From contig JAVLKG010000002.1 of assembly GCA_032128875.1 (NCBI GenBank), positions 512,001-576,000 on the forward strand: a stretch of 64,000 bases of DNA, given 5' to 3'. The position numbers were made by a program, and so were the translations under genes. The notes beneath the pieces were generated by a model. It was not told the DNA's origin. It saw only the letters and a list, made by a program, of their open reading frames with translations, and did no database searches. The DNA is from Candidatus Melainabacteria bacterium 17Bon1m. GTDB taxonomy: Bacteria; Cyanobacteriota; Vampirovibrionia; Obscuribacterales; Obscuribacteraceae. Below, piece after piece: positions 16,462-34,473 of the stretch (the first letter of the stretch is position 1; every line of letters begins with the position of its first letter).

Positions 16462-18135
16462 ATGCCACGTAAGCAAGCGCCAGCGCAGGAAGAAAAGCAG
16501 AGCCGTTCCGGCTCGTGGGTGCAGGTCGAAGGCGGCCCGATTTTGGCTTGCATAGACATGGGTACCAACTCATTTCACATGATTGTCTGCCAGGCCAGCC
16601 CTGAGCGTGACCATTTCGAAGTGATTACCAAGGTAAAAGAGGCGGTGCCCTTCTTCAGACGGTCGCTCACTGCTCACTATATCGACGAAGTAGCGTTGCA
16701 TTCGGCGATAAGCATTTTGAAAGTAATGCGCAAAAAGGCTTATGAAAAGGGTGCCAACAGCATTGTAGCCGTGGCAACATCGGCAGTGCGGGAATCTCGC
16801 AACGGTGCTGAAGTACTGAGCAAAATCAAAGAAGAATTGGAAATAGATGCGCGTATGATCTCCGGAAAGGAAGAGGCGCGCCTGATTTACCTCGGTGTGT
16901 TGTGGAGCATGCCGAAGCTGAAAGGACAATTCGGTATCGTCGATATCGGCGGCGGGTCTACCGAAGTGATCATGGGTGATCGGCATGGCATCGGCTTTGC
17001 TGAATCCTACAAACTTGGTGCTGCTCGTCTTACTCAACGATTTTTCAAGAAAGGGCAACCGACGCAAGAGACACTGCGCGAACTGCACGATGAAGTGAGG
17101 GGCGTGCTGCGCCCTGCTGCTGCAAGGCTCAACGAACTTGGTGGAGTACAGCAACTGATCGGTACATCAGGTACTGTTCAATCGCTTGCGAAAATCGATC
17201 GTGCGCGTCAAGGCAAACCCGGACATGAACTGCAGGGCTGGAAAATCTCTCAAAAACGCCTTGAAGAGATAGTCTTACTTATCGAAGAGAGTTCTATCAA
17301 GCAAGAGAAAATCAAAGGTGTAAGTTCTGATCGAAGCCAGACTATTCTTGCAGGCGCAATTGTTTTGCTTGAAACCATGCGTTCTTTCAATGTATCTGAA
17401 GTCATAGTTTGCACCGCAGCACTAAGAGAAGGCTGTGTTGTCGATCGATTTTTGCAGACCGGTTGGTTGGATGGCGGATTGAAAGAACATCGCGATCCGC
17501 GCTCAACATCAGTGCATCAACTCATGGACAAGTATCATGTGCCATACGATCACGCCGAGCAAGTAGCGAGAATCGCCTCTGACATTTTTATTCAAACGCG
17601 CGGCATTCTGCATGAATACACACCATATGTAGGACATCTCCTCTGGTCCGCATCAATGTTGCACGACATTGGGATGTTTATTGGAAGAAACGGGCACCAC
17701 AAGCATTCGTATTATTTGATCAAGCATTCTGGACTGCTAGGACACTCAGAAGAGGAAGTCGGCATCATTGCAGCGATTGCTCGTTATCACAGAGGCAGCG
17801 AACCGAAAGATTCGCATGAGGCGTTCTATACTGTCACGCCTGAAAATAGAAAGGTGCTGACCGATATGGCAGCAATTTTGCGTGTCGCCGAAGCTCTAGA
17901 TCGCAGTCACAAACAGGTTATTGAGCGAGTCACAGTGGCAATGCAACCGTTTCAAAAAGGCGGCTATGAGAAAAAACTGTTATCGCTTATCGTGAAATTG
18001 AAATCCGGCGAAAATTGCTATTCGGAAAGTTGGGCATTGCTCGAGAAGAAAGAGTTTTTCGAGAATCAGTTTCAAGTCCGGCTCAGTCTGCAGGTTCAAG
18101 CCGAAGCAGGCTATGCGGTTAAGTCGAACAAATAG
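16462..18135 (+). CDS. ppx: Ppx/GppA exopolyphosphatase with HD domain
   Basis: IDMGTNS, ATSAVRE, EEARL, DIGGGSTE, LREG; C-terminal LHDIG...HHKHSYY. Confidence 0.93.
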   Translation: MPRKQAPAQEEKQSRSGSWVQVEGGPILACIDMGTNSFHMIVCQASPERDHFEVITKVKEAVPFFRRSLTAHYIDEVALHSAISILKVMRKKAYEKGANSIVAVATSAVRESRNGAEVLSKIKEELEIDARMISGKEEARLIYLGVLWSMPKLKGQFGIVDIGGGSTEVIMGDRHGIGFAESYKLGAARLTQRFFKKGQPTQETLRELHDEVRGVLRPAAARLNELGGVQQLIGTSGTVQSLAKIDRARQGKPGHELQGWKISQKRLEEIVLLIEESSIKQEKIKGVSSDRSQTILAGAIVLLETMRSFNVSEVIVCTAALREGCVVDRFLQTGWLDGGLKEHRDPRSTSVHQLMDKYHVPYDHAEQVARIASDIFIQTRGILHEYTPYVGHLLWSASMLHDIGMFIGRNGHHKHSYYLIKHSGLLGHSEEEVGIIAAIARYHRGSEPKDSHEAFYTVTPENRKVLTDMAAILRVAEALDRSHKQVIERVTVAMQPFQKGGYEKKLLSLIVKLKSGENCYSESWALLEKKEFFENQFQVRLSLQVQAEAGYAVKSNK

Positions 18136-18159
18136 AGAATTAGTGATACAGGTTTTGGA

Positions 18160-18927: not shown

Positions 18928-18944
18928 AGATTAACGGAACCGGC

Positions 18945-20306
18945 TTATTGTGCGCCTGCGCCTGAGCGTTGTGCGAGGCGATTTTTCTCTGCCAATTCGC
19001 GAACGTGTGCAAGTCTTCTTTCCATTTTCTTTTGGGTGATGCCGTTCATCATCATTTTCGGTACTGGCAAACCAGTGTCGATGTGCGAAGACAGTTCGAG
19101 CGTAGTCGATTTGCCGTCTGCTGAAGGGGTTAGTACCCAGCTGCCTTCCATCGATTTGAACTTGTCTGATTTGACCATTTGATAGTCGATGCGACGATTA
19201 GGAATTTCCTGCGTGTTTATCAAGCAGGTCGCCGAACCAATCATTGGCAGTGCAGTAAATTTCTGCTCCAATTGTGACTCGTTGACGCCTTGTCTCATGA
19301 TTTTGCTGTATGCAAGTTCTGGGTCAACCTTTCTCTGCTCGTGAACAGCGTTGAATACGACATCAGGCGGCGCCTTAATGACGATAGATGCTTTTACTCT
19401 CGACTTACCGCTATTCAAGTTTGGTTTTGGTGTCTCTGCTTGAACAGCTTGAGCGGTCGATTGTTTTTCTTGCTGTGCTGCAGATTCCTTTTTGACTTTG
19501 GAAATTCTGTCTCCGAAGACGCCTGGAAGCAGCCGACTTGTCTTGCCCTCATTCTTATCGTCTGAAGACTTATCTTCGTTTTTTGCTTCCTTTTCTTTCT
19601 TCTCTTTCTTTTCCTTCTTTGTTTCGGCCTTGGATTCAGTTTTAGACTCAGGCACCGTATTTGGTGACGGCTTGGCCGCGATTGCTGTAGGTTTTTTTGC
19701 TGGTGCCGCTATTTGCTCTGCAGAATCTAGATCTTGGATGTGCGACTTATATGCAGGAGTTGCTTTTGTATTTACATGTGCAACTTCGTAGTCTGCACTT
19801 TCTTCGAGAGTTGGCTGTTGCACGCGTGCCGGTGGTGCTTTTACTGCAACCGGCTCTGCTTGTCTTTGAACTTGCTGAGCAACTTGATGCTCTATATGTT
19901 GTTCTTCTCTGGCAAGCGTCTTAAGCACTGCCGCTTGAGCCGTCAAGGTTTCGTGCAATGAATTCTGTTTTTGTTCGATAACAGTGGTGCGTTTATTCAT
20001 CTGCAGTTGCAGCTGAGTCATTTGCGCCTGCAATTGCGTCAATTGCTGCTGAATCTGATAGAGCTGTGCTTGCAGCGTTTGCGGAGAATTAGCATCCTTA
20101 TCTTCGCTACCGAACAGTCCTTTAGCTTGCGCGGAAGAACCAAGGATGGTGCAAAGGACTAAAGATATGGCAACTGCAATAGTTTGCCGTTTGAGCGATG
20201 CTCTCAAATCGTTCTTAATCACGTGCGTCTCTCTTTCTACGGATACGATAAAAAGCGAAAAAACCTGTATCGGTGGCGCTTTTAGCACATCGGCAAAGCT
20301 TATCAT
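18945..20306 (-). CDS. Exported coiled-coil protein with C-terminal SRPBCC/START (polyketide cyclase/CoQ10-like) domain
   Basis: Signal-like IAVAISLVLCTILGSSAQA; Gln-rich coiled coil; C-terminal IVIKAPPDVVFNAV...FKSMEGSWVL; true start may be GTG 20222. Confidence 0.7.
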   Translation of the reverse strand: MISFADVLKAPPIQVFSLFIVSVERETHVIKNDLRASLKRQTIAVAISLVLCTILGSSAQAKGLFGSEDKDANSPQTLQAQLYQIQQQLTQLQAQMTQLQLQMNKRTTVIEQKQNSLHETLTAQAAVLKTLAREEQHIEHQVAQQVQRQAEPVAVKAPPARVQQPTLEESADYEVAHVNTKATPAYKSHIQDLDSAEQIAAPAKKPTAIAAKPSPNTVPESKTESKAETKKEKKEKKEKEAKNEDKSSDDKNEGKTSRLLPGVFGDRISKVKKESAAQQEKQSTAQAVQAETPKPNLNSGKSRVKASIVIKAPPDVVFNAVHEQRKVDPELAYSKIMRQGVNESQLEQKFTALPMIGSATCLINTQEIPNRRIDYQMVKSDKFKSMEGSWVLTPSADGKSTTLELSSHIDTGLPVPKMMMNGITQKKMERRLAHVRELAEKNRLAQRSGAGAQ

Positions 20307-20465
20307 GACAAGTGGGGGATTTGAAGAGGAGTAAGACTAAAAGAAAGTCATACACTTGTCATGAGTTTCGCGAGTCTGTCTAATGCTCAGTCTCGCACTA
20401 AAAAATTGACGGCTGCTTGATAACTGTTTTGGCCGGCAAGCAGATTCGGAAATTGGCGAGAAAGC

Positions 20466-21116
20466 TTACACGCCTATTGGAATGAACTTCGGCACAAGTC
20501 TGCGCCATTTCATCTTTTCTGCGTATTCGCGGTAGCCGTCGCCCAAGCTTTCGAGCAAGATCTTTTCTTCGTATTTGGCGCGATTCAGCCACAAAGGTGC
20601 GACTACACAAACGGTAAAAAGCACCAGCGGGACAGATGTTGAAGCCAGCGAAGCGCCGAGCAGCGATTGAATGATTCCGGAATAGGCTGGGTGCATGACG
20701 AATTTCAGCAATCCGTCGCTTTTCACTTTGTGATCTTCAAGAATTTCGGCGTCAGTGGTGAAAGCTTCCCCAAGAGAAATCCAACCGCCGATCATGAAAA
20801 TCAAACCGCTTATCAAAACGAGAATTCCCAACCAGGAAATGATCATCGTAATGCCGGTAGGTTCGCCCTGACCGAGCGTGATCAACGGATGCGCCCAATC
20901 TGCTTTTATAACGTCGGAGTACATCAAAAATGCAGGAATTAAAGCGAAGATCGTTGCTACCGAAGCATATTGAGGTGCGCGTTGAATGATGAAGTTCTTT
21001 TCGTATTTAACTCCGGTTCCGCGGCGAATGAAGGCTTTGGTAAGAACCGGCGCTGCAATTACCGCACCCACTGATACCAAGGCTACGGTCACCAATGTTG
21101 GGACGTTGAAACTCAC
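20466..21116 (-). CDS. ICMT/PEMT-family integral membrane methyltransferase
   Basis: Multiple TM helices; GLLKFVMHPAYSG and RAKYEEKIL...GDGYREY motifs; GGAG RBS. Confidence 0.8.
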   Translation of the reverse strand: MSFNVPTLVTVALVSVGAVIAAPVLTKAFIRRGTGVKYEKNFIIQRAPQYASVATIFALIPAFLMYSDVIKADWAHPLITLGQGEPTGITMIISWLGILVLISGLIFMIGGWISLGEAFTTDAEILEDHKVKSDGLLKFVMHPAYSGIIQSLLGASLASTSVPLVLFTVCVVAPLWLNRAKYEEKILLESLGDGYREYAEKMKWRRLVPKFIPIGV

Positions 21117-21361
21117 TTAGTTATCTCCCTCTAAAGAGAATCGATTGCCGGGCAATCCGAAATCGTTTTGAAATTTTGCCTGGAACTTTCTGAAGACAGC
21201 TTGCCATCTTTAGTCGTATCACTGTACAGGCAGGTAGCTCTCTGCGTCAACGAAAACACATTTGAACAATCGAGACTCCATCGTGATTTGTTTGAAACAC
21301 GAGTTGACTGACGTCAGTTGCATTTATTTGTTTCATTGGCAATTGTTCATTGCCGAAAGAA

Positions 21362-22075
21362 TTAGCGAGCGTCTTCGAGTAATTGCTCGTCGGACTCAAG
21401 CGGGCATTTCCAGAGTCTGTAGAGTGCATTGAGCACTGTTTGAGCGGGCTGTGGCAATTCGTCACCAGGTGCCACTTCGATATCGTCCAGCATACGTCTC
21501 ATCCAGAGTGCGTGACGAGTATGCGGACGTGAGTGATGTCTCAGCCATTCCAAGCCGTCCTCAACTTCTTCTTTCGTATATTCAGAAGCATGATCGGCGA
21601 AATACTTTTCAAAAATTTCGAGAGTCTGGCGTGCATACGCTGTTGCGGCCAACTCTGCCGTTACTACTGCCAGTACTCCGTCTTTATGATTTGGGCTTTC
21701 GCACCATCTGCGCATAACCTGGCAAAGATGATGGCTTGCTTCGTTCAAAAGATCAGTCTTCAATTGTTCGTCCGTAATGCCTGCCAGGTGGCACTGTTTG
21801 ACGTACATCTGCTGGTAGGTCAGCTCTTCATCAGCTAATTGGTTGAACAGCTTTTTGCCGGCGTCCATGTTATCGGGCAGACAATCTCTGACAAGCGAGA
21901 TATTGCGCGGCAACTCCCTGATAAATGGCCAGAGGCTCAAACAGATTTCGCTTCCCAGAGGGATGACCGTTTCGTCTTGGATGCCGCCACTAAAGGGACT
22001 TGTTTTGCATCCGAGCGTTATTCTTTCGATAAGGGTTGGCATCCACCCCGATTTACGCGACATATTAGATTCCAA
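21362..22075 (-). CDS. Heme-oxygenase-like (TenA/PqqC/CADD-type) iron-containing redox protein
   Basis: Helical pattern WPFIRELP, LADEEL, AELAA, GLEWLRHHSRPHTRHALWM. Confidence 0.6.
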   Translation of the reverse strand: MESNMSRKSGWMPTLIERITLGCKTSPFSGGIQDETVIPLGSEICLSLWPFIRELPRNISLVRDCLPDNMDAGKKLFNQLADEELTYQQMYVKQCHLAGITDEQLKTDLLNEASHHLCQVMRRWCESPNHKDGVLAVVTAELAATAYARQTLEIFEKYFADHASEYTKEEVEDGLEWLRHHSRPHTRHALWMRRMLDDIEVAPGDELPQPAQTVLNALYRLWKCPLESDEQLLEDAR

Positions 22076-22331
22076 TAACCTATAAAACCCCAGTCATATA
22101 CTTTACTACGCAAATTAGACAGTCCTATGTAATCTAACTAATGAATGTTAAGCACCGGTGAGAAATCCCCTAAAAGTCTGCAGAACTGCGTTATCAGGGG
22201 GATGTAGAGATCTCAAGCAGTGTTAAACTCAGGCGCTGGCGCACATTTGCGGATTTTTACGAACTTAATTTCGATATTCGAGCCAGAATATATATTTTGG
22301 TTTTCAAATCTTAGGGAATTCCCCCAGCTCA

Positions 22332-23399
22332 ATGCCTTCAGTCGACAGCAGTCAAGAAAAGCAGACGGCACAGGCCGAAGAAAAGGTTGTTTCACCTTTG
22401 CCCTTGCCCATGCAGAGTCTGGCAACGGGAGAAAAGCTGCAGAGCAGAACGGATAGCTCGGTCGAAATCGTCAATGTTCGTGGTGCGAACCTGCAATTGC
22501 GTAAATTTCTCCCTCAAGATTCATCGCTGAATTTTGCTCCCGAACAACCAGCCAAAATCAACGAGAATAAACCAGTCGCTCTCTACTTGCACGGCATTGA
22601 AGGCCATGCCGAATGGTTCGCTAATACTGCTTCTGTGCTCAATCAAGCCGGCATTTCGGTCTATGCGCCGGACAGGCGCGGAGCCGGTCTTAATTTCTTC
22701 GAGCGCGGGCACGTGGAAAATGCCCAAGTGTTGATCGAAGACGTTGAGTTTTTCCTGAGCCTGGTTGCCGAAAGACACCCCGGGGCGCCGCTCTTTCTTA
22801 TCGGGAACTGCTGGGGAGCGAAATTGGCCGCTATTGTTGCTTCTGAAACACACAAATGGTCGACCAAAAGCGCAGAACATCCCGCAAAACCTGAACTTAC
22901 GGGCCTGGTCTTAATTTGCCCGGCAATAAAAACCAAGCCCGACCTGAAATTCTCTGACAAACTGTCGATTGCAGCTGCTTTGATCGCAGGAAAAGACGCC
23001 CTCAAACAACAGCTGCCGATTCCTCTCACCACTTTGATGTTTACCGACAATCATCTCTTTCTCGACTATATCGATAAAGACCCTCTACGACTGACGTCTG
23101 CTAGTAAAGCCTTTTACTTTGCCAGTTTTCTTCTCAGTCTAAAGTCCGCTCGAATCGCGCCATCCATCAAGATTCCCACCCTGATTCTCCAGTCAGATAA
23201 CGATGCGATTGTCGATGTTCCCGGCATCGAAAGTTGGTTTTCCAAAATTGCAACTGCCGATAAGAGATACAAAAAATACGACGGCGCTGCGCACAGTATG
23301 GATTTCGATAAGCGGCAATTTATGGATTATGCTCGCGACCTTACCGAATGGATAGAGGAGATCGGCACCCAAAGTCAAAAGCAGGGTGTCTTGCAATGA
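22332..23399 (+). CDS. Alpha/beta hydrolase (lysophospholipase/Hydrolase_4-like) with Cys at the nucleophile elbow
   Basis: LHGIEGH, PDRRGAG..RGH, GNCWG, DAIV, AHSM. Confidence 0.85.
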   Translation: MPSVDSSQEKQTAQAEEKVVSPLPLPMQSLATGEKLQSRTDSSVEIVNVRGANLQLRKFLPQDSSLNFAPEQPAKINENKPVALYLHGIEGHAEWFANTASVLNQAGISVYAPDRRGAGLNFFERGHVENAQVLIEDVEFFLSLVAERHPGAPLFLIGNCWGAKLAAIVASETHKWSTKSAEHPAKPELTGLVLICPAIKTKPDLKFSDKLSIAAALIAGKDALKQQLPIPLTTLMFTDNHLFLDYIDKDPLRLTSASKAFYFASFLLSLKSARIAPSIKIPTLILQSDNDAIVDVPGIESWFSKIATADKRYKKYDGAAHSMDFDKRQFMDYARDLTEWIEEIGTQSQKQGVLQ

Positions 23400-24625
23400 T
23401 CAAAATCACTGATATTCAAGTATCGACTGTCCTTCTGCCGTTTCGATTTGCGTTTAAACACAGCCTGGCTTCGCGCTCATTTTCGACCAACGTCATCGTC
23501 AAAGTGAAGATGGAAGACACCGCAACGGGTGCCACTGTATTTGGTTTGGGCGAAAGCGTTCCTAGAGACTACGTCACCGGTGAAACCTGCGAAACCGCAC
23601 TAGCTGAGATTAAGAGCAACTTTGCTCCCAGATTTCTCAACCAGAATCTCGATCAAGAACGCAAAGCGACTGAATCAGTAAGGCGAATGATAGAAGAGGT
23701 CGCTGCCTCTCTCAATGTCTACGGACGCAGAGTGGGAGCCTCTTTCTGCGCCCTGGAACTGGCACTTCTTGATGCTGCCGCCAAAATTGAGGGTGTTTCT
23801 ATTAGCCAGTGGTTGGCTGCCGAAAACGGCCGAGACGCTGTTGAATCAATTGATTACGGTGGCGTCATTCCTTTTGGAAAACGCAAAGTGCTCGCCGCAT
23901 TGCTTTACTTTTATAAGTTCTACGGATACAAAACCGTCAAATTGAAAGTCGGCGACGATCCAGACCTCGATCTCTTTACAGTCCGAAAAGCACGCGAACT
24001 TCTGGGATCCTCCACCGTCATTAGAGTTGATGCGAATTGCGCCTGGGACTTCGACAGCACAGTTGATTTTTCTCAAAAGGCGCAGGGCTACAACATAGCC
24101 TCTATTGAGCAACCGGTGCCCTTCGACCGGCTGGACGAATTGGTCGAGCTGACAAAGGTTTTGAAGGAAGAAATAGTCGTTGACGAATCATTGTGTACAG
24201 TGCAAGAGGCTCAAGACCTGGCGACAAAAAGAGCGTGTGGCGGTTTCAACATAAGAATTTCCAAGGTTGGTGGTCTTTTGGCTGCTCAGAAAATAATTGA
24301 CATTGCCCACAAGAATGGAATTAGCATCCATCTTGGCGCTCAGGTTGGCGAGAGCGGTATTTTGACGGCGGCCGGAAGAGCTTTGGCATGCGCGAATCAG
24401 AAATTTGAAAATTACGAAGGCGCCGCTAATTTTTTCCTCCTCAAAGAAGATCTGACAAAAGAAAATATGACCGCCGGTTTTGGCGGCAGAGGCAAAATGC
24501 CTAACGGTAAAGGTATTGGCGTGACGGTAAACGAGCAAAATTTAAATCGGTTTGAAGTGAAGCTTCAATCTGCCGATGCGAGTTCCGCTGCCCTTGAGGC
24601 GACAGGGAGAGGTCTTCATGTTTAA
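23396..24625 (+). CDS. Enolase-superfamily (muconate cycloisomerase/epimerase subgroup) enzyme
   Basis: GLGE, ELALLD, KLKVG, RVDAN, IEQP, DES, ISKVGG; ATGA overlap with upstream gene. Confidence 0.88.
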   Translation: MIKITDIQVSTVLLPFRFAFKHSLASRSFSTNVIVKVKMEDTATGATVFGLGESVPRDYVTGETCETALAEIKSNFAPRFLNQNLDQERKATESVRRMIEEVAASLNVYGRRVGASFCALELALLDAAAKIEGVSISQWLAAENGRDAVESIDYGGVIPFGKRKVLAALLYFYKFYGYKTVKLKVGDDPDLDLFTVRKARELLGSSTVIRVDANCAWDFDSTVDFSQKAQGYNIASIEQPVPFDRLDELVELTKVLKEEIVVDESLCTVQEAQDLATKRACGGFNIRISKVGGLLAAQKIIDIAHKNGISIHLGAQVGESGILTAAGRALACANQKFENYEGAANFFLLKEDLTKENMTAGFGGRGKMPNGKGIGVTVNEQNLNRFEVKLQSADASSAALEATGRGLHV

Positions 24626-26285
24626 ACGTCCCAGTTTGATTCATATGGGTCAGTTATATAGGCGCGCGACGCACATTCGGCGTTTTTTCAACGCTGTCAA
24701 AAATCCTCAAGAAGTGCAAGCGCAGAAATTGCTCGGCTATATTCGCGCCAATGAAAATAGCGCCTTCGGCAAAGCAAATAATTTCGACAAGATACGCACC
24801 GTCGAAGACTATCAACGCTATGTTCGCCCCTGCAAATATGAAGATCTTCAGCCATATATCGATAAGGTTCGCGCCGGTGCTACCAATCAATTGACGCGCG
24901 AAAATCCATTTATGTTTGCCACTACCAGTGGCACCACTGCCCTTCCGAAATTCATTCCTATAACGGCAACGCATATTCGCGATTACACGCATGCGTTTCA
25001 AGTGCACAACTATCACTTGATTCAAGATTATCCGCGCGCCGCGGACGGTCGATTTCTTTTAATCACAAGCAATGATGAAGAAGGGCGCACCGAATCTAAC
25101 ATTCCCTATGGTGCTGTTTCCGGCATGTTGAATCGCCGGCAACCGGAGATCATCCGCAAGCATTTTGCTACTCCATACGAACTTTGCAAAATCAAAAATG
25201 TCGATGCCAAATACTATTTGATGTTGCGCTCTGCTCTCGGATTGGATGTAACGGCGGTGATTTGCTGCAATCCATCTAGTTTGCTTTTGCTGGCAGATCA
25301 AATGAAAGAGCACGCAGCAGATTTGGTCGCCGACCTCTTTGACGGCACGGTCAAAAACACATACAGACCCCCTGCTGAATACAGCGATGCCTTTGCGAAA
25401 TTCTTCGTACCCAACAAAGAACGTGCTCGCCAACTCGACAAAATGCTTGAGAAAGACGGCTTGCTCCTGCCTCGCACTGTCTGGTCGAATTTGGAAATTC
25501 TGGTGTCCTGGAAAGGTGGACCGATGGCTTTCTATTTGGACAAGCTTCCTGAAATGTATGGAAATATGCCGGTCCGTGATTTCGGTTATATGGCAAGCGA
25601 GGGGCGCGGATCCATTCCGATTACCAGCGAAGGCTCAGGTGGCGTTTTGGCTATTACTAGCCACTTCTATGAATTCGTAGAGGAAGACGCGCACGAACAG
25701 CCCAATCCGAAATTCCTGCTTGCGCATCAACTGAAAAAGGGTGGACGTTATTTCATCTACTTCACCACCGGCGCCGGTCTATATCGGTACAACATCAATG
25801 ATTTGGTGGAAGTTGTAGATTTTGAGGGCAATGCACCGATTATTCGATTTGTTCAAAAGGGCATGGGTGTCAGCTCAATAACTGGGGAAAAACTCACCGA
25901 AGAGCAGGTTTTGGTTGCACTGACGATGGCAAAAACTCAGTTGGGCTTGAGCGAAGTCGAACATTGCACGGTGGAAGTAGAACTCGGCTCACCGCCTTTC
26001 TACGTGGCATTCGCAGAGACGAGTTCTGAGTTGCCGGACTCCGTGAAAAATCAGTTTATTCGTATATTTGATGATTCACTCAAAAATCAAAATCCAGAGT
26101 ATCAAGATAAGCGGTCAACCAAACGGCTTGGATTGCCGGTCATGCGCACTCTGCCCTCGGGGACTTACATGAAATTGAGACAACAACGCGTGCTGCAGGG
26201 GGCACCTGAAGCGCAGGTTAAAATACCTCTCTTGAGTGCGCACAGCTCCTTTACCGGGCAGTTGGCGCAAATCCAAGTCTCATAA
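24618..26285 (+). CDS. GH3-family acyl-acid amido synthetase
   Basis: TTSGTT..PKFIP, YMASEG, FYEF, GLYRYNIND, GEKLTE; ATG 24618 with GGAGAGG RBS. Confidence 0.9.
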   Translation: MFKRPSLIHMGQLYRRATHIRRFFNAVKNPQEVQAQKLLGYIRANENSAFGKANNFDKIRTVEDYQRYVRPCKYEDLQPYIDKVRAGATNQLTRENPFMFATTSGTTALPKFIPITATHIRDYTHAFQVHNYHLIQDYPRAADGRFLLITSNDEEGRTESNIPYGAVSGMLNRRQPEIIRKHFATPYELCKIKNVDAKYYLMLRSALGLDVTAVICCNPSSLLLLADQMKEHAADLVADLFDGTVKNTYRPPAEYSDAFAKFFVPNKERARQLDKMLEKDGLLLPRTVWSNLEILVSWKGGPMAFYLDKLPEMYGNMPVRDFGYMASEGRGSIPITSEGSGGVLAITSHFYEFVEEDAHEQPNPKFLLAHQLKKGGRYFIYFTTGAGLYRYNINDLVEVVDFEGNAPIIRFVQKGMGVSSITGEKLTEEQVLVALTMAKTQLGLSEVEHCTVEVELGSPPFYVAFAETSSELPDSVKNQFIRIFDDSLKNQNPEYQDKRSTKRLGLPVMRTLPSGTYMKLRQQRVLQGAPEAQVKIPLLSAHSSFTGQLAQIQVS

Positions 26286-26303
26286 CAAGGAAAGGAAAAT
26301 TCA

Positions 26304-27356
26304 ATGACTGGAAAAGTAAAGGTGGCGATAACGGGAGCCTCTGGGCTCGTAGGAAGTCACCTGGCAGAGCATCTCGTTCTGAGCGGATACGATGTTGTTG
26401 CTATGTCGCGGAATGCTTCAAGTGAAAAGTGTTTGACTGCAATTACCGGTCCTGGCAAATTGACTTTGCTAAATGTTGATGTGAATGATGAAAACGCATT
26501 GCAACACGCTTTTACCGGCTGTGATGTTGTCGTCCATGCGGCAGGCACCGTTGATCCTTACGGCTCGCGCCAGACAATTTTCAAAACCAATGTTGAAGGC
26601 ACTCGCAACGCCATGTCTGCCGCTCGCAATCGCGGGGTAAAGCAGTTTATCTTTGTCAGCAGCCTGTCTGTAATTACAGGTCAAGGTGACCAGTTCGATG
26701 TCGATGAAACTGCCGAGCTCAAACCTTGCGGCGAGTCGTATGCCGATTCGAAAGTAGAAGCCGAAAGGCTGGTGATGAGCGAGCCTGAAACCTCTTCGAT
26801 GAAAGTTACGTCAGTGCGTCCCGGCTTTATATATGGGCCCAGAGAGAAAGCCTGGATGCCTCGCTTGATCAATTCAATTGGCACAGGTAAGGCAATGTTG
26901 ATTGGTGGTGGCGTCAAAGAAACCAACGTCATCTATGTCGGTAATCTGAGCAAAGCGATTGAAAATGCCTTTCTCAATCCAAAAGCGTACGGACAAGTAT
27001 TCAATTTGACCGATGGGGAAAAGGTCACCAAAAAAGAACTCTTTGATGCGATTGCTGATGGGTTGGGGCTTCCTAGAGTATCGAAACAGATACCTGTTCC
27101 AGTTGCGCGCTTTGCCTGCGAGTTGATTTCCTCTTTTGCGCCTCTTTTGCCAGTGGAAAAGCAGCGCGGACTGGCACGCTTTTCGCGAGCAGCATTCCGC
27201 CTGGCCGGAGTGAATCAGGGCTTTTCGGTCAAGAAGGCAGAACGAGACCTAAACTATGTCAATCGCACCTCATTTAAGGAAGGCATGGCCAAGACTCTGG
27301 AATACTTCAAAGCTGAGCGCCAGGGTGCGCAAAAAGAGGTTGCAACGCGCAGATGA
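26304..27356 (+). CDS. Extended SDR, 3-beta-hydroxysteroid dehydrogenase/OleD-like
   Basis: TGASGLVG, VVHAA, SSLSV, YADSK, RPGFIYGP. Confidence 0.88.
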   Translation: MTGKVKVAITGASGLVGSHLAEHLVLSGYDVVAMSRNASSEKCLTAITGPGKLTLLNVDVNDENALQHAFTGCDVVVHAAGTVDPYGSRQTIFKTNVEGTRNAMSAARNRGVKQFIFVSSLSVITGQGDQFDVDETAELKPCGESYADSKVEAERLVMSEPETSSMKVTSVRPGFIYGPREKAWMPRLINSIGTGKAMLIGGGVKETNVIYVGNLSKAIENAFLNPKAYGQVFNLTDGEKVTKKELFDAIADGLGLPRVSKQIPVPVARFACELISSFAPLLPVEKQRGLARFSRAAFRLAGVNQGFSVKKAERDLNYVNRTSFKEGMAKTLEYFKAERQGAQKEVATRR

Positions 27357-27613
27357 TGAATGCCAAAGAGTTTGTAATCGACTATATAGGCAGGCACAAA
27401 CACCCTGTTAATGCTTGCTTGCACTTGGTCGGTGTGCCGTCGGCGTTTTACGGCATGTTTTTATTTGTAACCGGCAAATTTGCCTGGGGTTCTGCACTCA
27501 TTGTCCTTGGCTATTTTCTTCAATACCTTGGTCACAAAGCGCAGGGAAATGAAGTTGGCGAAGTTACTCTTATAAAACACCTATGGAAAAAAGTTTCCGC
27601 ACCGCGGAGTTGA
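27353..27613 (+). CDS. Mpo1/DUF962-like small membrane protein
   Basis: YIGRHKHPVNACLHLVGVP and QYLGH..QGN His motifs, two TM helices; translationally coupled. Confidence 0.78.
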   Translation: MMNAKEFVIDYIGRHKHPVNACLHLVGVPSAFYGMFLFVTGKFAWGSALIVLGYFLQYLGHKAQGNEVGEVTLIKHLWKKVSAPRS

Positions 27614-27617
27614 ACAG

Positions 27618-28634
27618 ATGAACGAAATATTGACGCAGCCCAATGAATTGAAATCGCGATTCGATCTCGCCGGTCGAGGCCCTATTGTTGTCGATGGTGC
27701 GACCGGTTATCTCGGCAGTCACCTTGTCGCTGCACTTGCCGCATCCGGAGCCGATATTCGCTGCTTGGTGCATAAAGGCAGCAAAGCGGAGGATGTGCAG
27801 GTTCTCAAAAATTTGGGCGCTAAGGTTTTTGTTGGCGAACTAACAGGTAATGATGAGCAAGTCACCAGCGCATTTAAAGATGCGCGAGTCGGCGTTCATC
27901 TGATTGGCAGCATCGCGCCCAAGAAGGGGCTCAGCCACGATCTTCTCCATGTCGTTATGACCGATTCATTTATTGAAAAGTCTAAAGCAGGCGGAGTGGA
28001 AAATGCACTCATGGTCACCGCACTTGGTACCAAAGCAAATGCTCCCAGCACTTATCATGCCACCAAATGGTTGGCAGAAGAAAGCCTGCGTAAGAGTGGT
28101 TTGAATTCAACTATCCTGCGCCCGTCGCTGCTTGTGGGACGTCAGGTTGGACGAAGAAACAGTAAACTGGTCGATCGACTGCTTAAGGTTATTGCTGAGA
28201 AAAAAGCGGTGCCTCTGGTTAATGGTGGCGCAAACAAGTTGCAGCCGCTCTTCATCGGCGATATGGCAATGGCTGCAGTTGCGTCGATTGATAAGCTGAC
28301 CGGTGCAAATGGCGAAGTATCCGGCGGCGTCAATGACCACGGCTCAAAAGATCCGATTGAGCTGGGAGGCAACGAAATATTGCCCATGCGCGACTTTGTA
28401 AAACAGCTGATGGCCGTGCTTCACGTCGATAAATCAATAGTTACCCTTCCGTACCCGATTGCAATGGCGGCGGCTACTGTCTGTCAGTTGATTCAAGAAG
28501 TTCCAGTGCTTTCGTGCGATCAGGTCAAGCTGTCAATGCGGGATAATATCTGCACCGATAATCGAATTGAGGAGCTTCTGGGTGCGAAGCCTGTGCCCTT
28601 GAGTACCGCTCTTCAGGTCTATGCGTCTAAGTAG
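27618..28634 (+). CDS. Atypical SDR, NDUFA9 (complex I 39-kDa subunit)-like NAD(P)H-binding protein
   Basis: GATGYLG, VHLIG, TALG, YHATKWLAE, ILRPSL, LQPLFIGD. Confidence 0.8.
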   Translation: MNEILTQPNELKSRFDLAGRGPIVVDGATGYLGSHLVAALAASGADIRCLVHKGSKAEDVQVLKNLGAKVFVGELTGNDEQVTSAFKDARVGVHLIGSIAPKKGLSHDLLHVVMTDSFIEKSKAGGVENALMVTALGTKANAPSTYHATKWLAEESLRKSGLNSTILRPSLLVGRQVGRRNSKLVDRLLKVIAEKKAVPLVNGGANKLQPLFIGDMAMAAVASIDKLTGANGEVSGGVNDHGSKDPIELGGNEILPMRDFVKQLMAVLHVDKSIVTLPYPIAMAAATVCQLIQEVPVLSCDQVKLSMRDNICTDNRIEELLGAKPVPLSTALQVYASK

Positions 28635-28640
28635 GAATAA

Positions 28641-29672
28641 ATGGAAGCTCAGGGTCCCTTGAAAATTTTAGTCACCGGCGCAAGCGGTTTTATTGGCACC
28701 AGCCTGGTGCCGAAGCTTGTGGCATTAGGACATAAAGTTCGCACCATGGGGCGCAGTAGCTCGTGCCCCAAGGACTTTCAAGGATTGGCTTTGGAGCACA
28801 AGCGCGGGGATGTTACCAATCCTGAGCAGGTGCAGGACGCGGTTGCCGGCTGCGACGTTGTCTATCACCTGGCTGGTCTTGTCTCTTACAAGAAAAGGGA
28901 TTTGAATCGGCAGTATGCGGTCAATGTGCTCGGAACGCGTAATGTCCTTGATGCATGCTTGCGCAATAACGTGAAGCGCGTCATTCATACAAGCTCTGTT
29001 GCTGCTATGGGCATACCTGAAGAAGGACAGATTGCCGATGAAGAGTTCGAGTACAACCTGCATGGACTAGGACTTTCTTACTGCGACACCAAGCATGAAG
29101 CAGAGCTGGAAGTAAATTCTTTCGTCCGGCAGGGCTTACCTGTCATTATGCTCAACCCCGGTATCATATTTGGTGAAGGCGATACTCATCCTCATCATCA
29201 CGTGATCTTCGGCGCCATGGCTAAAGGATGGGCGGTAGGCGTGCCGCCTGGCGGTGTGCCGTTCTCAGACATCAATGATGTCGTAGACGCTCATATCAAC
29301 GCGCTTACGCAAGGGCGCACAGGCGAGAGATATGTGCTTGTCAGTGCAAACCTGACTATGAAAGAAGCAGGCACGATTTTTTCTAAAATCTTCGGGACGA
29401 GAGCACCTATGCTGGAAATCCCTGGTCCTTTGCTGGTTGGTTTAGGAACAGCAGTAGAAACGATATTTCCTCTCTTCGGACTCAATCCGGCGCTATCCAG
29501 ACAGGTTGCCTGGCTCAGTCAGCATAAAATCTTCTTTTCTTCGAAGAAGGCAGAAGAGGAGCTGAATTTCCACGCCACTCCATTTTCAGAAACGATTAAA
29601 AGAACCACGCCCTATTACCTGGGCAAATCTTCAAATGGAAAAGATGGGGCGCGAACATCTGTAAGAGTTTAA
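28641..29672 (+). CDS. Extended SDR, dihydroflavonol-reductase/HpnA-like
   Basis: TGASGFIG, VYHLAG, HTSSVA, YCDTK, GRTGERYVL. Confidence 0.88.
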   Translation: MEAQGPLKILVTGASGFIGTSLVPKLVALGHKVRTMGRSSSCPKDFQGLALEHKRGDVTNPEQVQDAVAGCDVVYHLAGLVSYKKRDLNRQYAVNVLGTRNVLDACLRNNVKRVIHTSSVAAMGIPEEGQIADEEFEYNLHGLGLSYCDTKHEAELEVNSFVRQGLPVIMLNPGIIFGEGDTHPHHHVIFGAMAKGWAVGVPPGGVPFSDINDVVDAHINALTQGRTGERYVLVSANLTMKEAGTIFSKIFGTRAPMLEIPGPLLVGLGTAVETIFPLFGLNPALSRQVAWLSQHKIFFSSKKAEEELNFHATPFSETIKRTTPYYLGKSSNGKDGARTSVRV

Positions 29673-29741
29673 TACAGGCTCTTTCGTTCGATCACATCAA
29701 ATTGGCGAGCACTAAATATGGTGCTAACGCGCTCTTTCAAT

Positions 29742-30461
29742 CTACCGTGTTTCACCGACTGTGCGGGACTGTGTTTGTCCTTGCGTTCCTGTTTGTACAG
29801 GTGTAACGGTGCCGGGTGCAGCCGTTGTTGTTGCCGATGTGGCTTCCTGAATGCGACGCAGAGACAGCTTTTGTTCTTGCACGTTCTGATACAAAATTCT
29901 GTAATAGCGCGAAAGCATTTCGGTCTTCGCTGCCTTATAACCAGTCAGACATTCAGCAAACGCTTCATCGTACTTGCCGACCGAACTAAGTGTCTTGATC
30001 AAGCTGGCCCGGGCAGGGTCGTAATTAGCATTGCTCTTGAGTGCTTCTCTAAAGCAGGCTTCGGCATCATTGAGCCTACCCATTTTCGAATACGCTTCAC
30101 CCAGCGTGTAATTGTCGAAAGGAGTAGCTTTTGCCATCTTCTGAATGATTATCAGCTGGTACATAGCCTCTTGAAGCGAGCCATGGCGCAAAAGGGCAAA
30201 AGCGAGGTAGCGGCGGGCGGACACACTGTCCGGATCGGCTGTTACTGCTGCTGCCAAAATGCGAATGGCACCTTCATAGTTGCCTTTGCGCATTTGCTCA
30301 TAACCTTTTTGCAAATACTGTCCGACAGTAGCGCTTACGACTTTGGTTCTTGCCTGCGGCTTTGCCGGTGCCGAAGCAGTGGCTTGAGCTACATTCGATG
30401 AGATGCCGGTCGCTACGATAATCGCCCCGAGGGTAAACATCGCTGTCTTTCTGCCTGACAT
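29742..30461 (-). CDS. Secreted TPR protein
   Basis: ATG 30461 with GGAGAG RBS, signal peptide, 4-5 TPR-like repeats. Confidence 0.8.
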   Translation of the reverse strand: MSGRKTAMFTLGAIIVATGISSNVAQATASAPAKPQARTKVVSATVGQYLQKGYEQMRKGNYEGAIRILAAAVTADPDSVSARRYLAFALLRHGSLQEAMYQLIIIQKMAKATPFDNYTLGEAYSKMGRLNDAEACFREALKSNANYDPARASLIKTLSSVGKYDEAFAECLTGYKAAKTEMLSRYYRILYQNVQEQKLSLRRIQEATSATTTAAPGTVTPVQTGTQGQTQSRTVGETR

Positions 30462-30794
30462 CAAAAGCTCTCCTTGCCGATTCCGAACTTGTTTTAAAAC
30501 GCCATAGACGTTCCTAGCCAAATAGTAACACCATGAAAACATTGTGATTCAGTTTTCGGCCCAGTCCTGCCAATTTTGGCAATCAACGAATCAGCTTGGC
30601 GGACAAAGCCATGTACCAATCATGTTTGCCAGGAGGTTAAAAGGACCTCTTTGGAACTTGGTAATGCCACAGTTTGAATTGCAACTATGGCTACGATAAA
30701 GAATGGAAATTAGCTTAAGCCGTGCAGCAAAACTGCCCTAAATACGTCTCGGCATTGTGCCATAAAAATAGATCGCAATGCGAAACTACAATAT

Positions 30795-31670: not shown

Positions 31671-32459
31671 TCAGTCTTGAGTGCTGCCGTAACTCTCATT
31701 AGACGTCAAATGCTGCTTGAGGCGGATCAATATTCCTTTGAGTAGGTCCGCTTCTCGCTTACTCGGATGCGTTCTTTGCCAGAGCTGTCTGAATTCAGTT
31801 TGCACCAGTTGGCGGTTGTATGTGCGCGAGAAATTCACAGAATCGGAAATCTGCCCGAACAGCTCGAGCAACTCATCGTCTATCGCGCCTGTTGAGAGTT
31901 CCGTTGCATTGTTTGGCCAACTTGATCTAGGAAAATTATTTCCCAACCGCGAGATCTCATACCCAATAACGCAAGCCGCTTGAGCCAGATTTAGAGACGG
32001 CAATGCTTCGGAGGTTGGGATCGTGATTATATGGTGGCAGCGGTTCAAATCCTCTTGACGCAAGCCATCCCGTTCATCGCCAAGTACAAAGGCCACTTTG
32101 TTTTCCTTTGCCGCATCCAAAACAGTTTGTGAAATCTCCGCAAGAGGAACCGGTATTAGTTTTCTCTGTTTTCCGGATGTAGTTCCTATCGCAACCGCGA
32201 TGTCTTTCAGAGCGTCTTCCAGTGATTCGAATACTGAAGCTCCTTTCAAAATATCGAAGGCACCGACTGCCATTTTCCTAGCTTCTGCATCTTTGTAATT
32301 CTTTGGAGGTGACACCAAACGCAGATCGCTCAATGCGAAATTCTTCATGGCGCGCGCCACTGCACCAATGTTTCCCAGGTATACAGGTTTGACGATTATA
32401 AAGACGACATTTTCTAAAACAGAGTGACTACCGATTTCTTCGTTCGCGCTTTCAGTCAT
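31671..32459 (-). CDS. trmJ: TrmJ/LasT SPOUT tRNA methyltransferase
   Basis: GNIGAVARAMKNF, AFVLGDERDGL, PSLNLAQA. Confidence 0.88.
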   Translation of the reverse strand: MTESANEEIGSHSVLENVVFIIVKPVYLGNIGAVARAMKNFALSDLRLVSPPKNYKDAEARKMAVGAFDILKGASVFESLEDALKDIAVAIGTTSGKQRKLIPVPLAEISQTVLDAAKENKVAFVLGDERDGLRQEDLNRCHHIITIPTSEALPSLNLAQAACVIGYEISRLGNNFPRSSWPNNATELSTGAIDDELLELFGQISDSVNFSRTYNRQLVQTEFRQLWQRTHPSKREADLLKGILIRLKQHLTSNESYGSTQD

Positions 32460-34473
32460 TGTTCTTTAATTCCACAACGCGTTCGTGAAGCAAGTTTTTG
32501 ATCTCATCAACCGAAAGATCGCGTAGTTCTTTTACTTCCAAGGGCTTTCCGATGGCGACGCGGATGGCTGCAGGACGGGGAGTCTTCTTTCCCTTTGGCC
32601 ATGCTTCAAATCCGCCTGTGATGGCAAAAGGAACAATGGGGCATTGCGCGTCCTTCTGCAATCTGGCCACCCCTGATTGAAATTCTCCAATGCTTCCGTC
32701 GCGTGTCAACTTTCCTTCCGGGAAAATGAGGACGCTTTCCCCCTTTGATAAACACGCTTCTGCCGATTTAAGAGCGTCGGATCCTTGCCCTCGTTTAAGT
32801 GGAATGGCGCCAAGTGTCGCCGCCAAATGACCAATCACCGGCCATTTCATGGCATCATCCATAACAAGAAAGCGCGTTCTTCTCTCAAAAATTGCGCCCA
32901 CAATCAAAGGGTCCAACCAACCAGTATGATTGCCGGCCAAGATAACCGTTCTTCTGCGTCCCCAGTGGCTGACACCAGATGCGGTATCATCAAGCTGGTG
33001 CGACTTGTCGATGATTTGGAATTGGAAAAAAACTTTCAAAAGCGCTCTGGCAAAGAGGCGGCAGAGCAAAAATACAAGATCATTCCAGACAAATGCCATC
33101 AAGAGAGCAAAAATCAGAGCGGTAATGGAGAGAACTCTCAGCGCCGGTAAAAGCGAAACCGAAGGCAAAATGCGTTCCATATAAATTGCCGCGAAAAGCA
33201 GCGGCAACAGTTGCAGGGATACTCTCAATCCCAATGCTCGTCCACGATACTGTCGGGGGAAAATACTCTGACACAGCGTGTCCAGCAAAGACTGCGATTT
33301 GCTGGCTGTATAACCAAGTGCAAAAACCCCAAGCTGGGCGATCATCAACCTGCCTGTAGACGCCGTGATCACTGCTGCAATCGATGAGACTGCCAGAACT
33401 ATCGCCAATCCTTCAGTTAGTTTTGTCAGCCCGCCCCGTTTCACAATTTGATTTGCAGCCAAGCCGCCGCACATCAAACCTAATGCCAGCGCCGGCAAAA
33501 GGTCGGTCATCAGAGGAAAGCTAAGCCGATGCCCTTGCCAGGCAAAAAGCGTCAGGCAGACAAAAAATGCCAGGGAGAACGTGCCCACCCCGGCGCTGAC
33601 AAAGAGAGTTTTTGCGGCGCGTTGGTGACGTTTTAAATACAGCCAGAAAGACATTTCCGCTGGTTTTTCTTTGCGCTTGAATGCAGCGTTGCAGATGTCT
33701 TCGACTTTGCTTCCTGCAAAATAAGCAAGGACGTACAAGACAACTGACGCTCTAAGTAAAGTCCAGGGAAACTCCGCACCTGTGGCTAACCATATAAGTG
33801 TAGAGGACATGATCGCTGCTGCCAGACTTGCCCAGAATAATGAATTCAGGCGCACCAGCGGTGCCAGGAAACTTTCCTTGCCATTACTTTCAACGGATAA
33901 TTTCACCACGCGTGGTGTCACCTTCAACCGGCAAATATCGAATACTGCCGAGGCCGAACTGAGAGCCACAATAAGTGAACCAACGATTAGACAACGCTGT
34001 ACCTCGTCTAACATTTGCGGCAGCAGCATGGAGAGACCAAGCAATATCGCGCCGCGAACAAGAAGTGACTGGTTGAGCAGACGGAAAGGACTGAATTTGT
34101 CCGCCAGAATGCCGGCCGGAAATGAGAAAAGAATGCAAGGCAAAAGCAAGAGACATGAGGAAAGCCCGAGCAATTCTCCTTGCGGTCCAAAAAGAATAAT
34201 CAAAGAAAAGAGGCTGAGCATCGACAACTTGTCGGCAGTCTCAGACAAAAAATTGGTGGCGATGAAACAGCGCCGGGCAATTTTTTCATCCCGCTCTGGC
34301 GAGAGATTGGATTCCATGCTCAAAGCAGCCAAATTCGGGCTTTCGACCGATTTTGCCTTGCTGGTGCTGCGATTTGACTCATAACTGGTCGAACTTAGCA
34401 GTTTTTGCCCTCGTCTGTAGATCGCATATAAAACAGCTATCCACCGTGTTATTGCTGTTTTGTGACAGATCAA
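32452..34473 (-). CDS. MFS transporter (LplT-like) fused to PlsC-type acyltransferase
   Basis: AGILADKF MFS motif and about 12 hydrophobic segments; C-terminal NHTGWLD and FPEG; start uncertain (alternative ATG 34317). Confidence 0.85.
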   Translation of the reverse strand: MICHKTAITRWIAVLYAIYRRGQKLLSSTSYESNRSTSKAKSVESPNLAALSMESNLSPERDEKIARRCFIATNFLSETADKLSMLSLFSLIILFGPQGELLGLSSCLLLLPCILFSFPAGILADKFSPFRLLNQSLLVRGAILLGLSMLLPQMLDEVQRCLIVGSLIVALSSASAVFDICRLKVTPRVVKLSVESNGKESFLAPLVRLNSLFWASLAAAIMSSTLIWLATGAEFPWTLLRASVVLYVLAYFAGSKVEDICNAAFKRKEKPAEMSFWLYLKRHQRAAKTLFVSAGVGTFSLAFFVCLTLFAWQGHRLSFPLMTDLLPALALGLMCGGLAANQIVKRGGLTKLTEGLAIVLAVSSIAAVITASTGRLMIAQLGVFALGYTASKSQSLLDTLCQSIFPRQYRGRALGLRVSLQLLPLLFAAIYMERILPSVSLLPALRVLSITALIFALLMAFVWNDLVFLLCRLFARALLKVFFQFQIIDKSHQLDDTASGVSHWGRRRTVILAGNHTGWLDPLIVGAIFERRTRFLVMDDAMKWPVIGHLAATLGAIPLKRGQGSDALKSAEACLSKGESVLIFPEGKLTRDGSIGEFQSGVARLQKDAQCPIVPFAITGGFEAWPKGKKTPRPAAIRVAIGKPLEVKELRDLSVDEIKNLLHERVVELKNND

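Follow-up and report, generated by a model that had tools for sequence, protein, structure and literature searches.

Bacterial GH3 proteins number in the thousands, and OlsH is the only one with a known function (PMC12493201). In the OlsH/OlsI/OlsG operon of Singulisphaera acidiphila, described in 2025, a GH3 protein, an α/β-hydrolase and a methyltransferase together give rise to ornithine lipid, with OlsH N-acylating the amino acid with a free fatty acid in an ATP-dependent reaction; the system uses no polyketide synthase (PKS), nonribosomal peptide synthetase (NRPS), acyl-CoA or acyl carrier protein (PMC12493201). Here we analyze a gene cluster in a 64,000-nucleotide stretch of DNA (the window) from Candidatus Melainabacteria bacterium 17Bon1m, a member of the Obscuribacterales (GCA_032128875.1; positions 512,001 to 576,000 of contig 2, JAVLKG010000002.1, in an assembly of 7.55 Mb and 35 contigs). 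Compared by class, the two systems are alike: the window cluster also encodes a GH3 ligase, an α/β-hydrolase-fold enzyme (ABH) and a probable lipid methyltransferase, here of the ICMT/PEMT type. The window cluster differs in the constant presence of an enolase-superfamily enzyme (ENOL) as partner of GH3, in the addition of a heme-oxygenase-like (HO-like) protein, three extended short-chain dehydrogenases/reductases (SDR1, SDR2 and SDR3) and an Mpo1-like protein, and in a hydrolase nucleophile that is cysteine. We give a probability of about one half to the reading that the cluster is a vertically conserved pathway dedicated to making a tailored N-acyl amino acid, which would most probably be an envelope lipoamino acid or a lipophilic signal. 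An amide lipid or signal as the product would be in keeping with the families to which the enzymes belong and with their neighbors, and the cluster would be a variant form of GH3-dependent N-acyl amino acid synthesis, the chemistry of which is plausible.

The invariant core of the cluster is ENOL directly upstream of GH3, to which particular lineages have added the hydrolase, SDR and Mpo1 genes. Of 301 genomes sampled from the phylum, 51 contain GH3 homologues, and 57 neighborhoods of these were searched. In eight of these (L084, L086, L087, L089, L091, L102, L104 and L137) an HO-like gene (Pfam Haem_oxygenas_2), ENOL and GH3 are co-directional, and in five of the eight a gene assigned by Pfam to ICMT/PEMT directly follows GH3. 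ENOL adjoins GH3 in two further loci, L107 and L111, and the remaining 47 neighborhoods, including that of the genome's own second GH3 on contig 9, have no cluster gene next to GH3. These cluster loci of other lineages have a GC content of 0.63-0.73, compared with 0.48 in the window. Since HO-like and ICMT genes recur together with ENOL-GH3 in other lineages, the divergent pair in the window belongs to the ENOL-GH3 system. An earlier note on this DNA had centered the cluster on GH3, which does lie in the core, but had missed that the conserved element is the ENOL-GH3 pair.

Fusions and metagenomes extend the association. A full HMMER search with ENOL gave 409 representatives at E ≤ 1e-30, with five long proteins among the best 150. 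ENOL is fused to a Hydrolase_4 domain in P0134, P0136 and P0138, to Haem_oxygenas_2 in P0147 and P0163, and to a major facilitator superfamily (MFS) protein in P0121; the last came from a search of proteins of 717 aa and upward, which is blind to fusions of ~620-710 aa, and those came from the HMMER search. A metagenome scan seeded with the hydrolase fusions yielded 80 loci, in 54 of which ENOL is ≥39% identical to a query. At least 400 nt follow ENOL in 33 of the 54, and GH3 comes directly after it in 26 of these (25 plus L166, whose two genes overlap), compared with none of 19 loci of this kind whose ENOL relatives are more distant. In 30 of 50 assessable metagenome loci ABH immediately precedes ENOL. 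The two share one open frame in L147 and L167, the other 32 adjacent pairs being separate. The ABH-ENOL-GH3 trio recurs in GC-rich metagenome contigs (GC 0.61-0.73), and SDR1-like or Mpo1-like genes stand beside ENOL-GH3 in L143, L148, L149, L150, L182, L194 and L197, the SDR1 relatives at 29-34% identity and, in L143, a 71-aa Mpo1-like relative beside MFS-ENOL-GH3. Further neighbors in the GC-rich contigs are an MMPL protein, a protein with patatin and cyclic-nucleotide-binding (cNMP) domains, a P450 and an amino-acid permease. The earlier note had mentioned similar neighborhoods in other phyla, and such neighborhoods do exist in quite different lineages, at GC 0.61-0.73 against 0.48. A plasmid search with a GC-rich GH3 returned only three distant matches (26-31% identity), the one annotated context being without an enolase link.

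The GH3 phylogeny agrees with this arrangement. In a FastTree of 92 GH3s, for which every fifth locus of L003-L082 was kept and all others were included, every one of the 43 enolase-adjacent GH3s belongs to a single clade of 49 members; the other six are the paralogue in the window genome and second copies in loci of the L182 type. The window group and the GC-rich ABH-ENOL-GH3 group are joined with a support of 1.0. We would propose tentatively, as a somewhat doubtful extension, that the enolase-linked GH3 clade marks an undescribed, widespread class of PKS/NRPS-independent clusters, found among Cyanobacteriota, the non-photosynthetic ones included, and among GC-rich soil bacteria, which would make D or dehydro N-acyl amino acids, often carboxyl-methylated.

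The GH3 protein itself carries the domains and motifs of its family. Its N, M and C domains (PF03321, PF23571 and PF23572) score 206.4, 71.2 and 63.2 bits, all above the gathering cut-off of 23.6, and the solved relatives are JAR1 (jasmonate-Ile synthetase, the best), GH3.15, GH3.12 and GH3.6. The motifs that we take to bind the nucleotide in GH3 enzymes, a Ser/Thr-Gly-Thr-Thr loop, Tyr-x-x-Ser-Glu-Gly and Tyr-Arg-x-x-Asp, are present as T103-S104-G105-T106-T107, Y324-M-A-S327-E328-G329 and Y389-R390-Y391...D395, and are invariant in 20 orthologues. The sole NCBIfam model matched is the OlsH equivalog (NF052613), at 104.3 bits and thus far below its cut-off of 620. This match, together with the occurrence of the three enzyme classes in one locus as in Sinac_1599-1601 (a comparison by class) and the expectation, in the available text of the report, of OlsH homologues with other amino-acid specificities (PMC12493201), is what speaks for an ornithine-lipid pathway, or another known acyloxyacyl aminolipid pathway, of the OlsH/OlsI/OlsG type with added modifiers, in which GH3 would make the lyso-lipid, ABH would O-acylate it and the methyltransferase would N-methylate the head group. 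We consider this very unlikely, since the score is so far from the equivalog cut-off (the second GH3 of the genome reaches 108 bits), the invariant ENOL partner and the fusions have no counterpart in OlsHI, and the PEMT match of the methyltransferase is weaker than its ICMT match. The earlier note knew of no characterized pathway of this composition; this has been out of date since the OlsH/OlsI/OlsG operon was described in 2025 (PMC12493201), although the window cluster is most likely not that pathway. The only relevant results of full-text literature searches for such a set of genes were the OlsH paper (PMC12493201) and its review.

The second GH3 gene of the genome (G000 contig 9, 96994-98547; L083:9935-11626) is 39% identical to that of the window and has no cluster gene nearby. 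It scores 107.8 bits against the OlsH model and adjoins a glycosyltransferase gene (L083:8559-9800, - strand) that matches, as its best NCBIfam model, HpnI of hopanoid synthesis (105 bits, cut-off 310). The phylogeny places this second GH3 as sister to the enolase-linked group containing the window GH3.

Within the Obscuribacterales, the seven co-oriented genes and the divergent pair form one conserved unit and not a chance grouping. A scan of one genome per species gave 130 confirmed relatives, the best 80 of which were kept as loci and then searched with the window proteins (tblastn); for each gene the count was restricted to loci long enough to contain it (assessable). The records that hold the closest GH3 homologues and all 80 related loci are titled Obscuribacterales or Melainabacteria, and include a few metagenome-assembled genomes that are evidently mis-binned. 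Retention was counted in a divergent set of 71 loci, whose GH3s are 54-78% identical to that of the window (Table 1). On its 3′ side the unit ends abruptly after SDR3, the downstream flanking genes being kept in only 5-7 of 53-58 loci, whereas the upstream genes are also kept, so synteny alone does not set the 5′ border. As these kin are not independent, the counts reflect retention through deep divergence rather than repeated assembly. The SRPBCC/START-like protein encoded upstream is a possible lipid-binding accessory, its place in the pathway being suggested by synteny alone. That the genes are functionally tied, as the earlier note had supposed, is supported by these counts relative to the flanking controls, for the divergent pair as well, and by the fusion of ENOL to hydrolase and oxygenase.

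Conservation within one order also raises the question of whether two or more independent units are merely neighbors, ABH-ENOL-GH3 (together with HO-like and ICMT) adjoining an unrelated lipid redox module of SDR1-Mpo1-SDR2-SDR3, their adjacency being due to inheritance. SDR2 and SDR3 were not seen outside Obscuribacterales-type loci among those searched, the SDR/Mpo1 block persists without GH3 in L179, and Ppx, with no obvious link to the cluster, is equally syntenic. Against these observations stand the 4-nt overlaps and 4-18-nt gaps along the whole run, the SDR1-like or Mpo1-like genes beside ENOL-GH3 in seven unrelated GC-rich contigs, and the loss of the downstream flanking genes at the same divergence, and we regard separate units as quite unlikely.

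Some related loci depart in detail from the window. L045 is without Mpo1 and SDR3. A single internal stop codon occurs in the ABH gene of L022 (7823-8782) and in the ENOL gene of L039 (1200-2408), which may be pseudogenes or assembly errors. Between ICMT and HO-like, at least 58 of the 80 related loci, including relatives with GH3s 87-95% identical, carry a gene of ~255 aa (for example L004:5992-6789 and L014:6019-6792, both - strand) that has no Pfam match and is missing from the window (21117-21361) and from L003. By protein-language features its product is nearest to lipid-carrier folds of the LolA/DUF1571/MucB_RseB type (score 0.96), which we treat as a lead only. A paralogous relation of this protein to HO-like was considered and rejected (hhalign probability 0.4%).

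ENOL retains the catalytic apparatus of its superfamily. What we take to be the signature of the muconate-lactonizing subgroup, placed by alignment with 1jpm, consists of Lys-x-Lys in strand 2, Asp/Glu/Asp metal ligands and a Lys in strand 6; K182-x-K184, D212, E238, D263 and K290 of ENOL are invariant in 27 sequences and align with the same residues of 1jpm, 3rit and 2p88. The nearest solved relatives are the dipeptide epimerases 3rit, 1jpm and 3q45 and the racemase-type 2p88 (92-108 bits), compared with 75-77 bits for solved muconate cycloisomerases. ENOL is thus like 2p88, 1jpm/1tkk, 3rit and 3q45 in keeping Lys-x-Lys, the Asp/Glu/Asp ligands and the second Lys. The substrates of N-succinyl/N-acyl amino acid racemases and of dipeptide epimerases are N-acylated amino acids with a free carboxylate, which is the type of product that GH3 makes; to our knowledge, no pairing of these enzymes with a GH3 is known. 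ENOL is unlike them in its low identity, in falling below all NCBIfam equivalog cut-offs (40-69 bits with the epimerase models, cut-offs 343-500) and in lacking Asp-x-Asp, as FDFDAP of 1jpm aligns to YEGAAN and DLD of 3rit to NYE. In dipeptide epimerases this Asp-x-Asp, after strand 8, presumably holds the free N-terminal ammonium. A predicted complex of ENOL (1-395) and ABH (76-350) scored 0.00, which is evidence neither way.

The best NCBIfam match of ENOL is the muconate/chloromuconate cycloisomerase model TIGR02534 (130.1 bits, cut-off 334.95; the L091 relative reaches 161 bits). Chlorocatechol degradation pairs a cycloisomerase of ENOL's subgroup with dienelactone hydrolase, a Cys-nucleophile α/β-hydrolase. 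The ABH-ENOL pair resembles that of dienelactone hydrolase and chloromuconate cycloisomerase, ABH has a weak Pfam match to DLH (19.8 bits, cut-off 21), and ABH-ENOL fusions would suit consecutive steps on one acid. One could therefore read the cluster as a pathway for a small polar acid, in which the Cys-hydrolase would open a lactone or ester, ENOL, as cycloisomerase, dehydratase or racemase, would act on the freed acid, both of them working ahead of GH3 with a lactone or dicarboxylic acid as starting compound, and GH3 would couple its substrate, that acid, to an amino acid, the conjugate being a soluble signal or a detoxified product, like the plant GH3 hormone conjugates; JAR1 as the best solved relative of GH3 would agree with this, and the small cNMP-binding protein after GH3 in all four annotated GC-rich loci hints at signaling. 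However, both scores lie below their cut-offs (130 against 335 and 19.8 against 21), the solved epimerases and racemase outscore the solved cycloisomerases, ABH is a lipase-like Hydrolase_4 protein (135 bits), and the ICMT, Mpo1-like, SRPBCC, LolA-like, MMPL and patatin neighbors point to hydrophobic substrates. A polar-acid pathway is therefore unlikely in our view.

On the preferred reading, a pathway for a tailored N-acyl amino acid, GH3 would adenylate a free, probably fatty, carboxylic acid and couple it to an amino acid through the α-amine, as OlsH does. ENOL would then bind the free α-carboxylate of the conjugate via Mg2+ and take the α-proton with its two lysines, resulting in epimerization to the D-form or, less likely, in β-elimination, the latter if the HO-like enzyme hydroxylates first. 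The ICMT-type membrane methyltransferase would methylate the carboxylate, and the HO-like protein may oxidize the amino acid or the acyl chain. The order GH3, ENOL, ICMT is proposed because the GH3 products, which are N-acylated and have a free α-carboxylate, match the type of substrate used by the kin of ENOL and by ICMT. The natural substrate of ICMT is an N-acylated, lipid-bearing cysteine carboxylate. By chemical analogy only, a natural product class of another phylum, whose synthase genes had not been found by 2024, has the structure that GH3 and a carboxyl methyltransferase would give. The genes added in Obscuribacterales would remodel the lipid part: the lipase-like ABH may release or transfer an acyl group, its Cys being suited to thioester acyl transfer (like O-acylation by OlsI) or to freeing the acid for GH3, and the three extended SDRs and the Mpo1-like protein may provide hydroxy/oxo and α-oxidation chemistry.

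A lipid substrate is suggested by several of these proteins. ABH resembles monoglyceride lipases: its triad is Cys160-Asp-His321, with GNCWG aligned to GHSMG of human monoglyceride lipase (3pe6) and Asp and His also aligned. It scores as a Hydrolase_4 member, with Cys in place of the canonical Ser of the G-x-S-x-G elbow and triad; this Cys is kept in ≥95% of 75 sequences, in line with the Cys-type hydrolase of the earlier note, and the three hydrolase-ENOL fusions have Cys, Cys and Ser at the position. The Mpo1-like family takes its name from a 2-hydroxy fatty acid dioxygenase; the match (PF06127) covers profile positions 2-64 of 95, and the protein has two hydrophobic segments and conserved RHxHPxNAxLH and GHxxQGNEVGE motifs. 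SDR1 resembles OleD, its best NCBIfam matches being OleD-type 2-alkyl-3-oxoalkanoate reductases (149.6-153.2 bits, cut-off 580), and SDR3 resembles HpnA (best NCBIfam match, 237 bits, cut-off 368) and SdmB. The methyltransferase has about five hydrophobic segments, its ICMT (PF04140) and PEMT (PF04191) matches would correspond to a carboxylate O or an amine N acceptor, and it scores 51.8 bits with the NCBIfam isoprenylcysteine O-methyltransferase model, below the cut-off of 160. The SRPBCC gene is syntenic, a LolA-like gene is found in at least 58 of the 80 related loci and lost from the window, and MMPL, patatin and P450 genes neighbor the GC-rich versions, all of which leans toward lipid, as does the use of free fatty acids by OlsH (PMC12493201). 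The best solved relatives of SDR2 are the NDUFA9 subunits of complex I. A ceramide-type pathway, prompted by the NDUFA9-like SDR2, was dropped, with no serine-palmitoyltransferase-like gene among the neighbors scanned.

The HO-like protein also leans toward lipid, since its model matches UndA bound to lauric acid. The AF2 model (pLDDT 89.6, pTM 0.87) has the seven-helix HO-like fold, and the best Foldseek matches are CADD, UndA, a TenA-like protein, BesC and HrmI, with TM of ~0.6, E values of ~2e-6 to UndA/CADD structures and a probability of 1.00 to CADD, UndA, BesC and HrmI. As modeled, it would share its fold with UndA, which binds medium-chain fatty acids, and with CADD (PDB 4wx0, 6p5q, 1rcw and 8va9), from which it differs in sequence (11-20% identity). 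Homology to the PF14518 group is supported by shared CADD profile matches, the fold and collinear motifs; hhalign of the family with four PF14518 neighbors found only a local 18-column match (probability 9.9%). In the second ligand helix, Glu is replaced by Thr or Ala, as judged by alignment only.

In three of its enzyme classes the window cluster recalls the OleBCD olefin/β-lactone enzymes, where an α/β-hydrolase and an adenylate-forming enzyme are encoded together with an OleD-like reductase of the 3β-HSD family and act on long-chain acids. The window cluster is unlike OleBCD in that SDR1 reaches only 150-153 bits against 580 and no OleA thiolase is present among the 16 neighboring proteins. 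OleC belongs to an adenylating family other than GH3.

Several observations weigh against the reading as a dedicated N-acyl amino acid pathway. At the level of the enzymes, the sequence does not reveal the acid or amine specificity of GH3, and the window GH3 is far from OlsH (104 bits against 620). The top NCBIfam match of ENOL is the muconate cycloisomerase subfamily, a broad one (130 bits), so ENOL may instead catalyze a reaction other than epimerization, on an acid that is not an amide. The H-x3-D-x2-H motif of PF14518 relatives reads H-x3-H-x2-H in HO-like, His replacing the motif aspartate, and the position varies in orthologues. At the level of the locus, parts of the system prove dispensable: HO-like is missing in 16 of 59 divergent loci; ICMT is absent from the GC-rich ABH-ENOL-GH3 loci; L064 is rearranged to ICMT-GH3-SDR2-ABH without ENOL, SDR1, Mpo1 or SDR3; and L179, a metagenome contig with a GC content of 0.41, has ABH-ENOL-SDR1-Mpo1-SDR2-SDR3 with no GH3 between ENOL and SDR1. 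Synteny alone over-counts members, because the housekeeping-looking Ppx is also syntenic (51 of 56). The node joining all enolase-linked GH3s has a support of 0.30. Finally, the RNA evidence given below is the presence of words in contigs from one sample and says nothing on co-transcription.

Table 1. Features of the cluster and its flanks, with their retention in assessable divergent loci
Feature	Coordinates	Strand	Basis	Present/assessable
Ppx/GppA phosphatase (upstream)	16462..18135	+		51/56
SRPBCC/START-like protein (upstream)	18945..20306	-	Pfam Polyketide_cyc2, 42 bits, C-terminal; hydrophobic anchor residues 41-61	55/57
ICMT/PEMT-family membrane S-adenosylmethionine methyltransferase	20466..21116	-	Pfam ICMT 40.7, PEMT 35.5 bits	58/58
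HO-like (CADD/UndA-type) helical protein	21362..22075	-	Pfam TENA_THI-4 25 bits, NCBIfam CADD 31.7 bits	43/59
Divergent intergenic region, 256 bp, presumed promoter region	22076..22331	.	position only
ABH, Hydrolase_4, monoglyceride-lipase-like	22332..23399	+	Pfam Hydrolase_4 135 bits	63/64
ENOL, muconate-lactonizing subgroup	23396..24625	+	Pfam MR_MLE_C 139 bits plus MR_MLE_N	65/66
GH3 ATP-dependent acyl acid amido synthetase	24618..26285	+	Pfam GH3 domains 206.4/71.2/63.2 bits
SDR1, extended SDR, 3β-HSD family	26304..27356	+	Pfam 3Beta_HSD/Epimerase	64/65
Mpo1-like (DUF962), 86 aa	27353..27613	+	Pfam 43.3 bits, cut-off 24	63/65
SDR2, NDUFA9-like extended SDR	27618..28634	+	Pfam NAD_binding_10/Epimerase; solved relatives	64/64
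SDR3, HpnA/SdmB-like extended SDR, last conserved gene of the putative operon	28641..29672	+	Pfam 3Beta_HSD/Epimerase; NCBIfam HpnA	59/61
TPR gene (downstream control)				7/58
SpoU methylase (downstream control)				5/54
MFS-acyltransferase fusion protein, 673 aa (downstream control)	32452..34473	-		5/53

The coordinates in the list of open reading frames agree with the earlier description of seven co-oriented genes with ATGA overlaps or gaps of 18 nt or less: the + strand genes of 22332-29672 overlap or are separated by ≤18 nt, and the HO-like and ICMT genes are divergent from them on the - strand. The ABH/ENOL and SDR1/Mpo1 junctions are 4-nt ATGA overlaps, and the gaps are 18 nt for GH3-SDR1, 4 nt for Mpo1-SDR2 and 6 nt for SDR2-SDR3. 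ENOL and GH3 overlap by 8 nt with the GH3 start at 24618, which has a GGGAGAGG box upstream; the longest GH3 open reading frame begins at 24576. The families named at the outset all hold up in Pfam, NCBIfam and solved relatives, the divergent HO-like and ICMT/PEMT proteins included, and the cluster is PKS/NRPS-free as had been stated, since none of the 16 proteins scanned by Pfam (16462-34473) carries a PKS or NRPS domain.

GC content is ~0.48 and uniform throughout the window. A scan for sigma-70-like consensus promoters found no site inside 22076-22331, and neither the promoter sites of the whole region (8, compared with 10.4 expected in shuffles) nor the terminators (13, compared with 12.1) exceed shuffles. 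All sampled words of 21300-29700 were found in four RNA-Seq runs, which come from one sample of one study. The flanks contain, besides the Ppx/GppA phosphatase and the MFS-acyltransferase fusion, tetratricopeptide repeat (TPR) genes at 18160-18927, 29742-30542 and 30795-31469.

The GC-rich loci have features of their own. A protein consisting of a cNMP-binding domain only (152-167 aa) is encoded directly after GH3 in all four annotated long GC-rich loci (L159:11729-12190, L192:11791-12246, L157:10855-11346 and L182:10818-11318), and a patatin-cNMP protein and a large cNMP-binding protein are found near it, which suggests cyclic-nucleotide control of the GC-rich version of the system. L182, L149, L150 and L194 have two or three GH3 genes per locus (GH3-GH3-ABH-SDR1 ... 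ENOL-GH3), suggestive of sequential amide-forming steps. One of the plasmid matches, L220 (Streptomyces sp. plasmid NZ_CP027299.1, 23169-24839), is a GH3 31% identical to a GC-rich cluster GH3 and lies within a type I PKS locus with a P450, an aminotransferase, an F420 oxidoreductase and an extra threonyl-tRNA synthetase gene; it is another, unrelated use of bacterial GH3.

The locus is compact, at ~9.2 kb or, with the SRPBCC gene, 10.7 kb. The ties of a GH3 clade to ENOL by adjacency, fusion and phylogeny give a concrete candidate class of substrates, N-acyl amino acids, for an orphan branch of the enolase superfamily, and point to lipids yet to be described in Obscuribacterales, an uncultured, non-photosynthetic group related to cyanobacteria.

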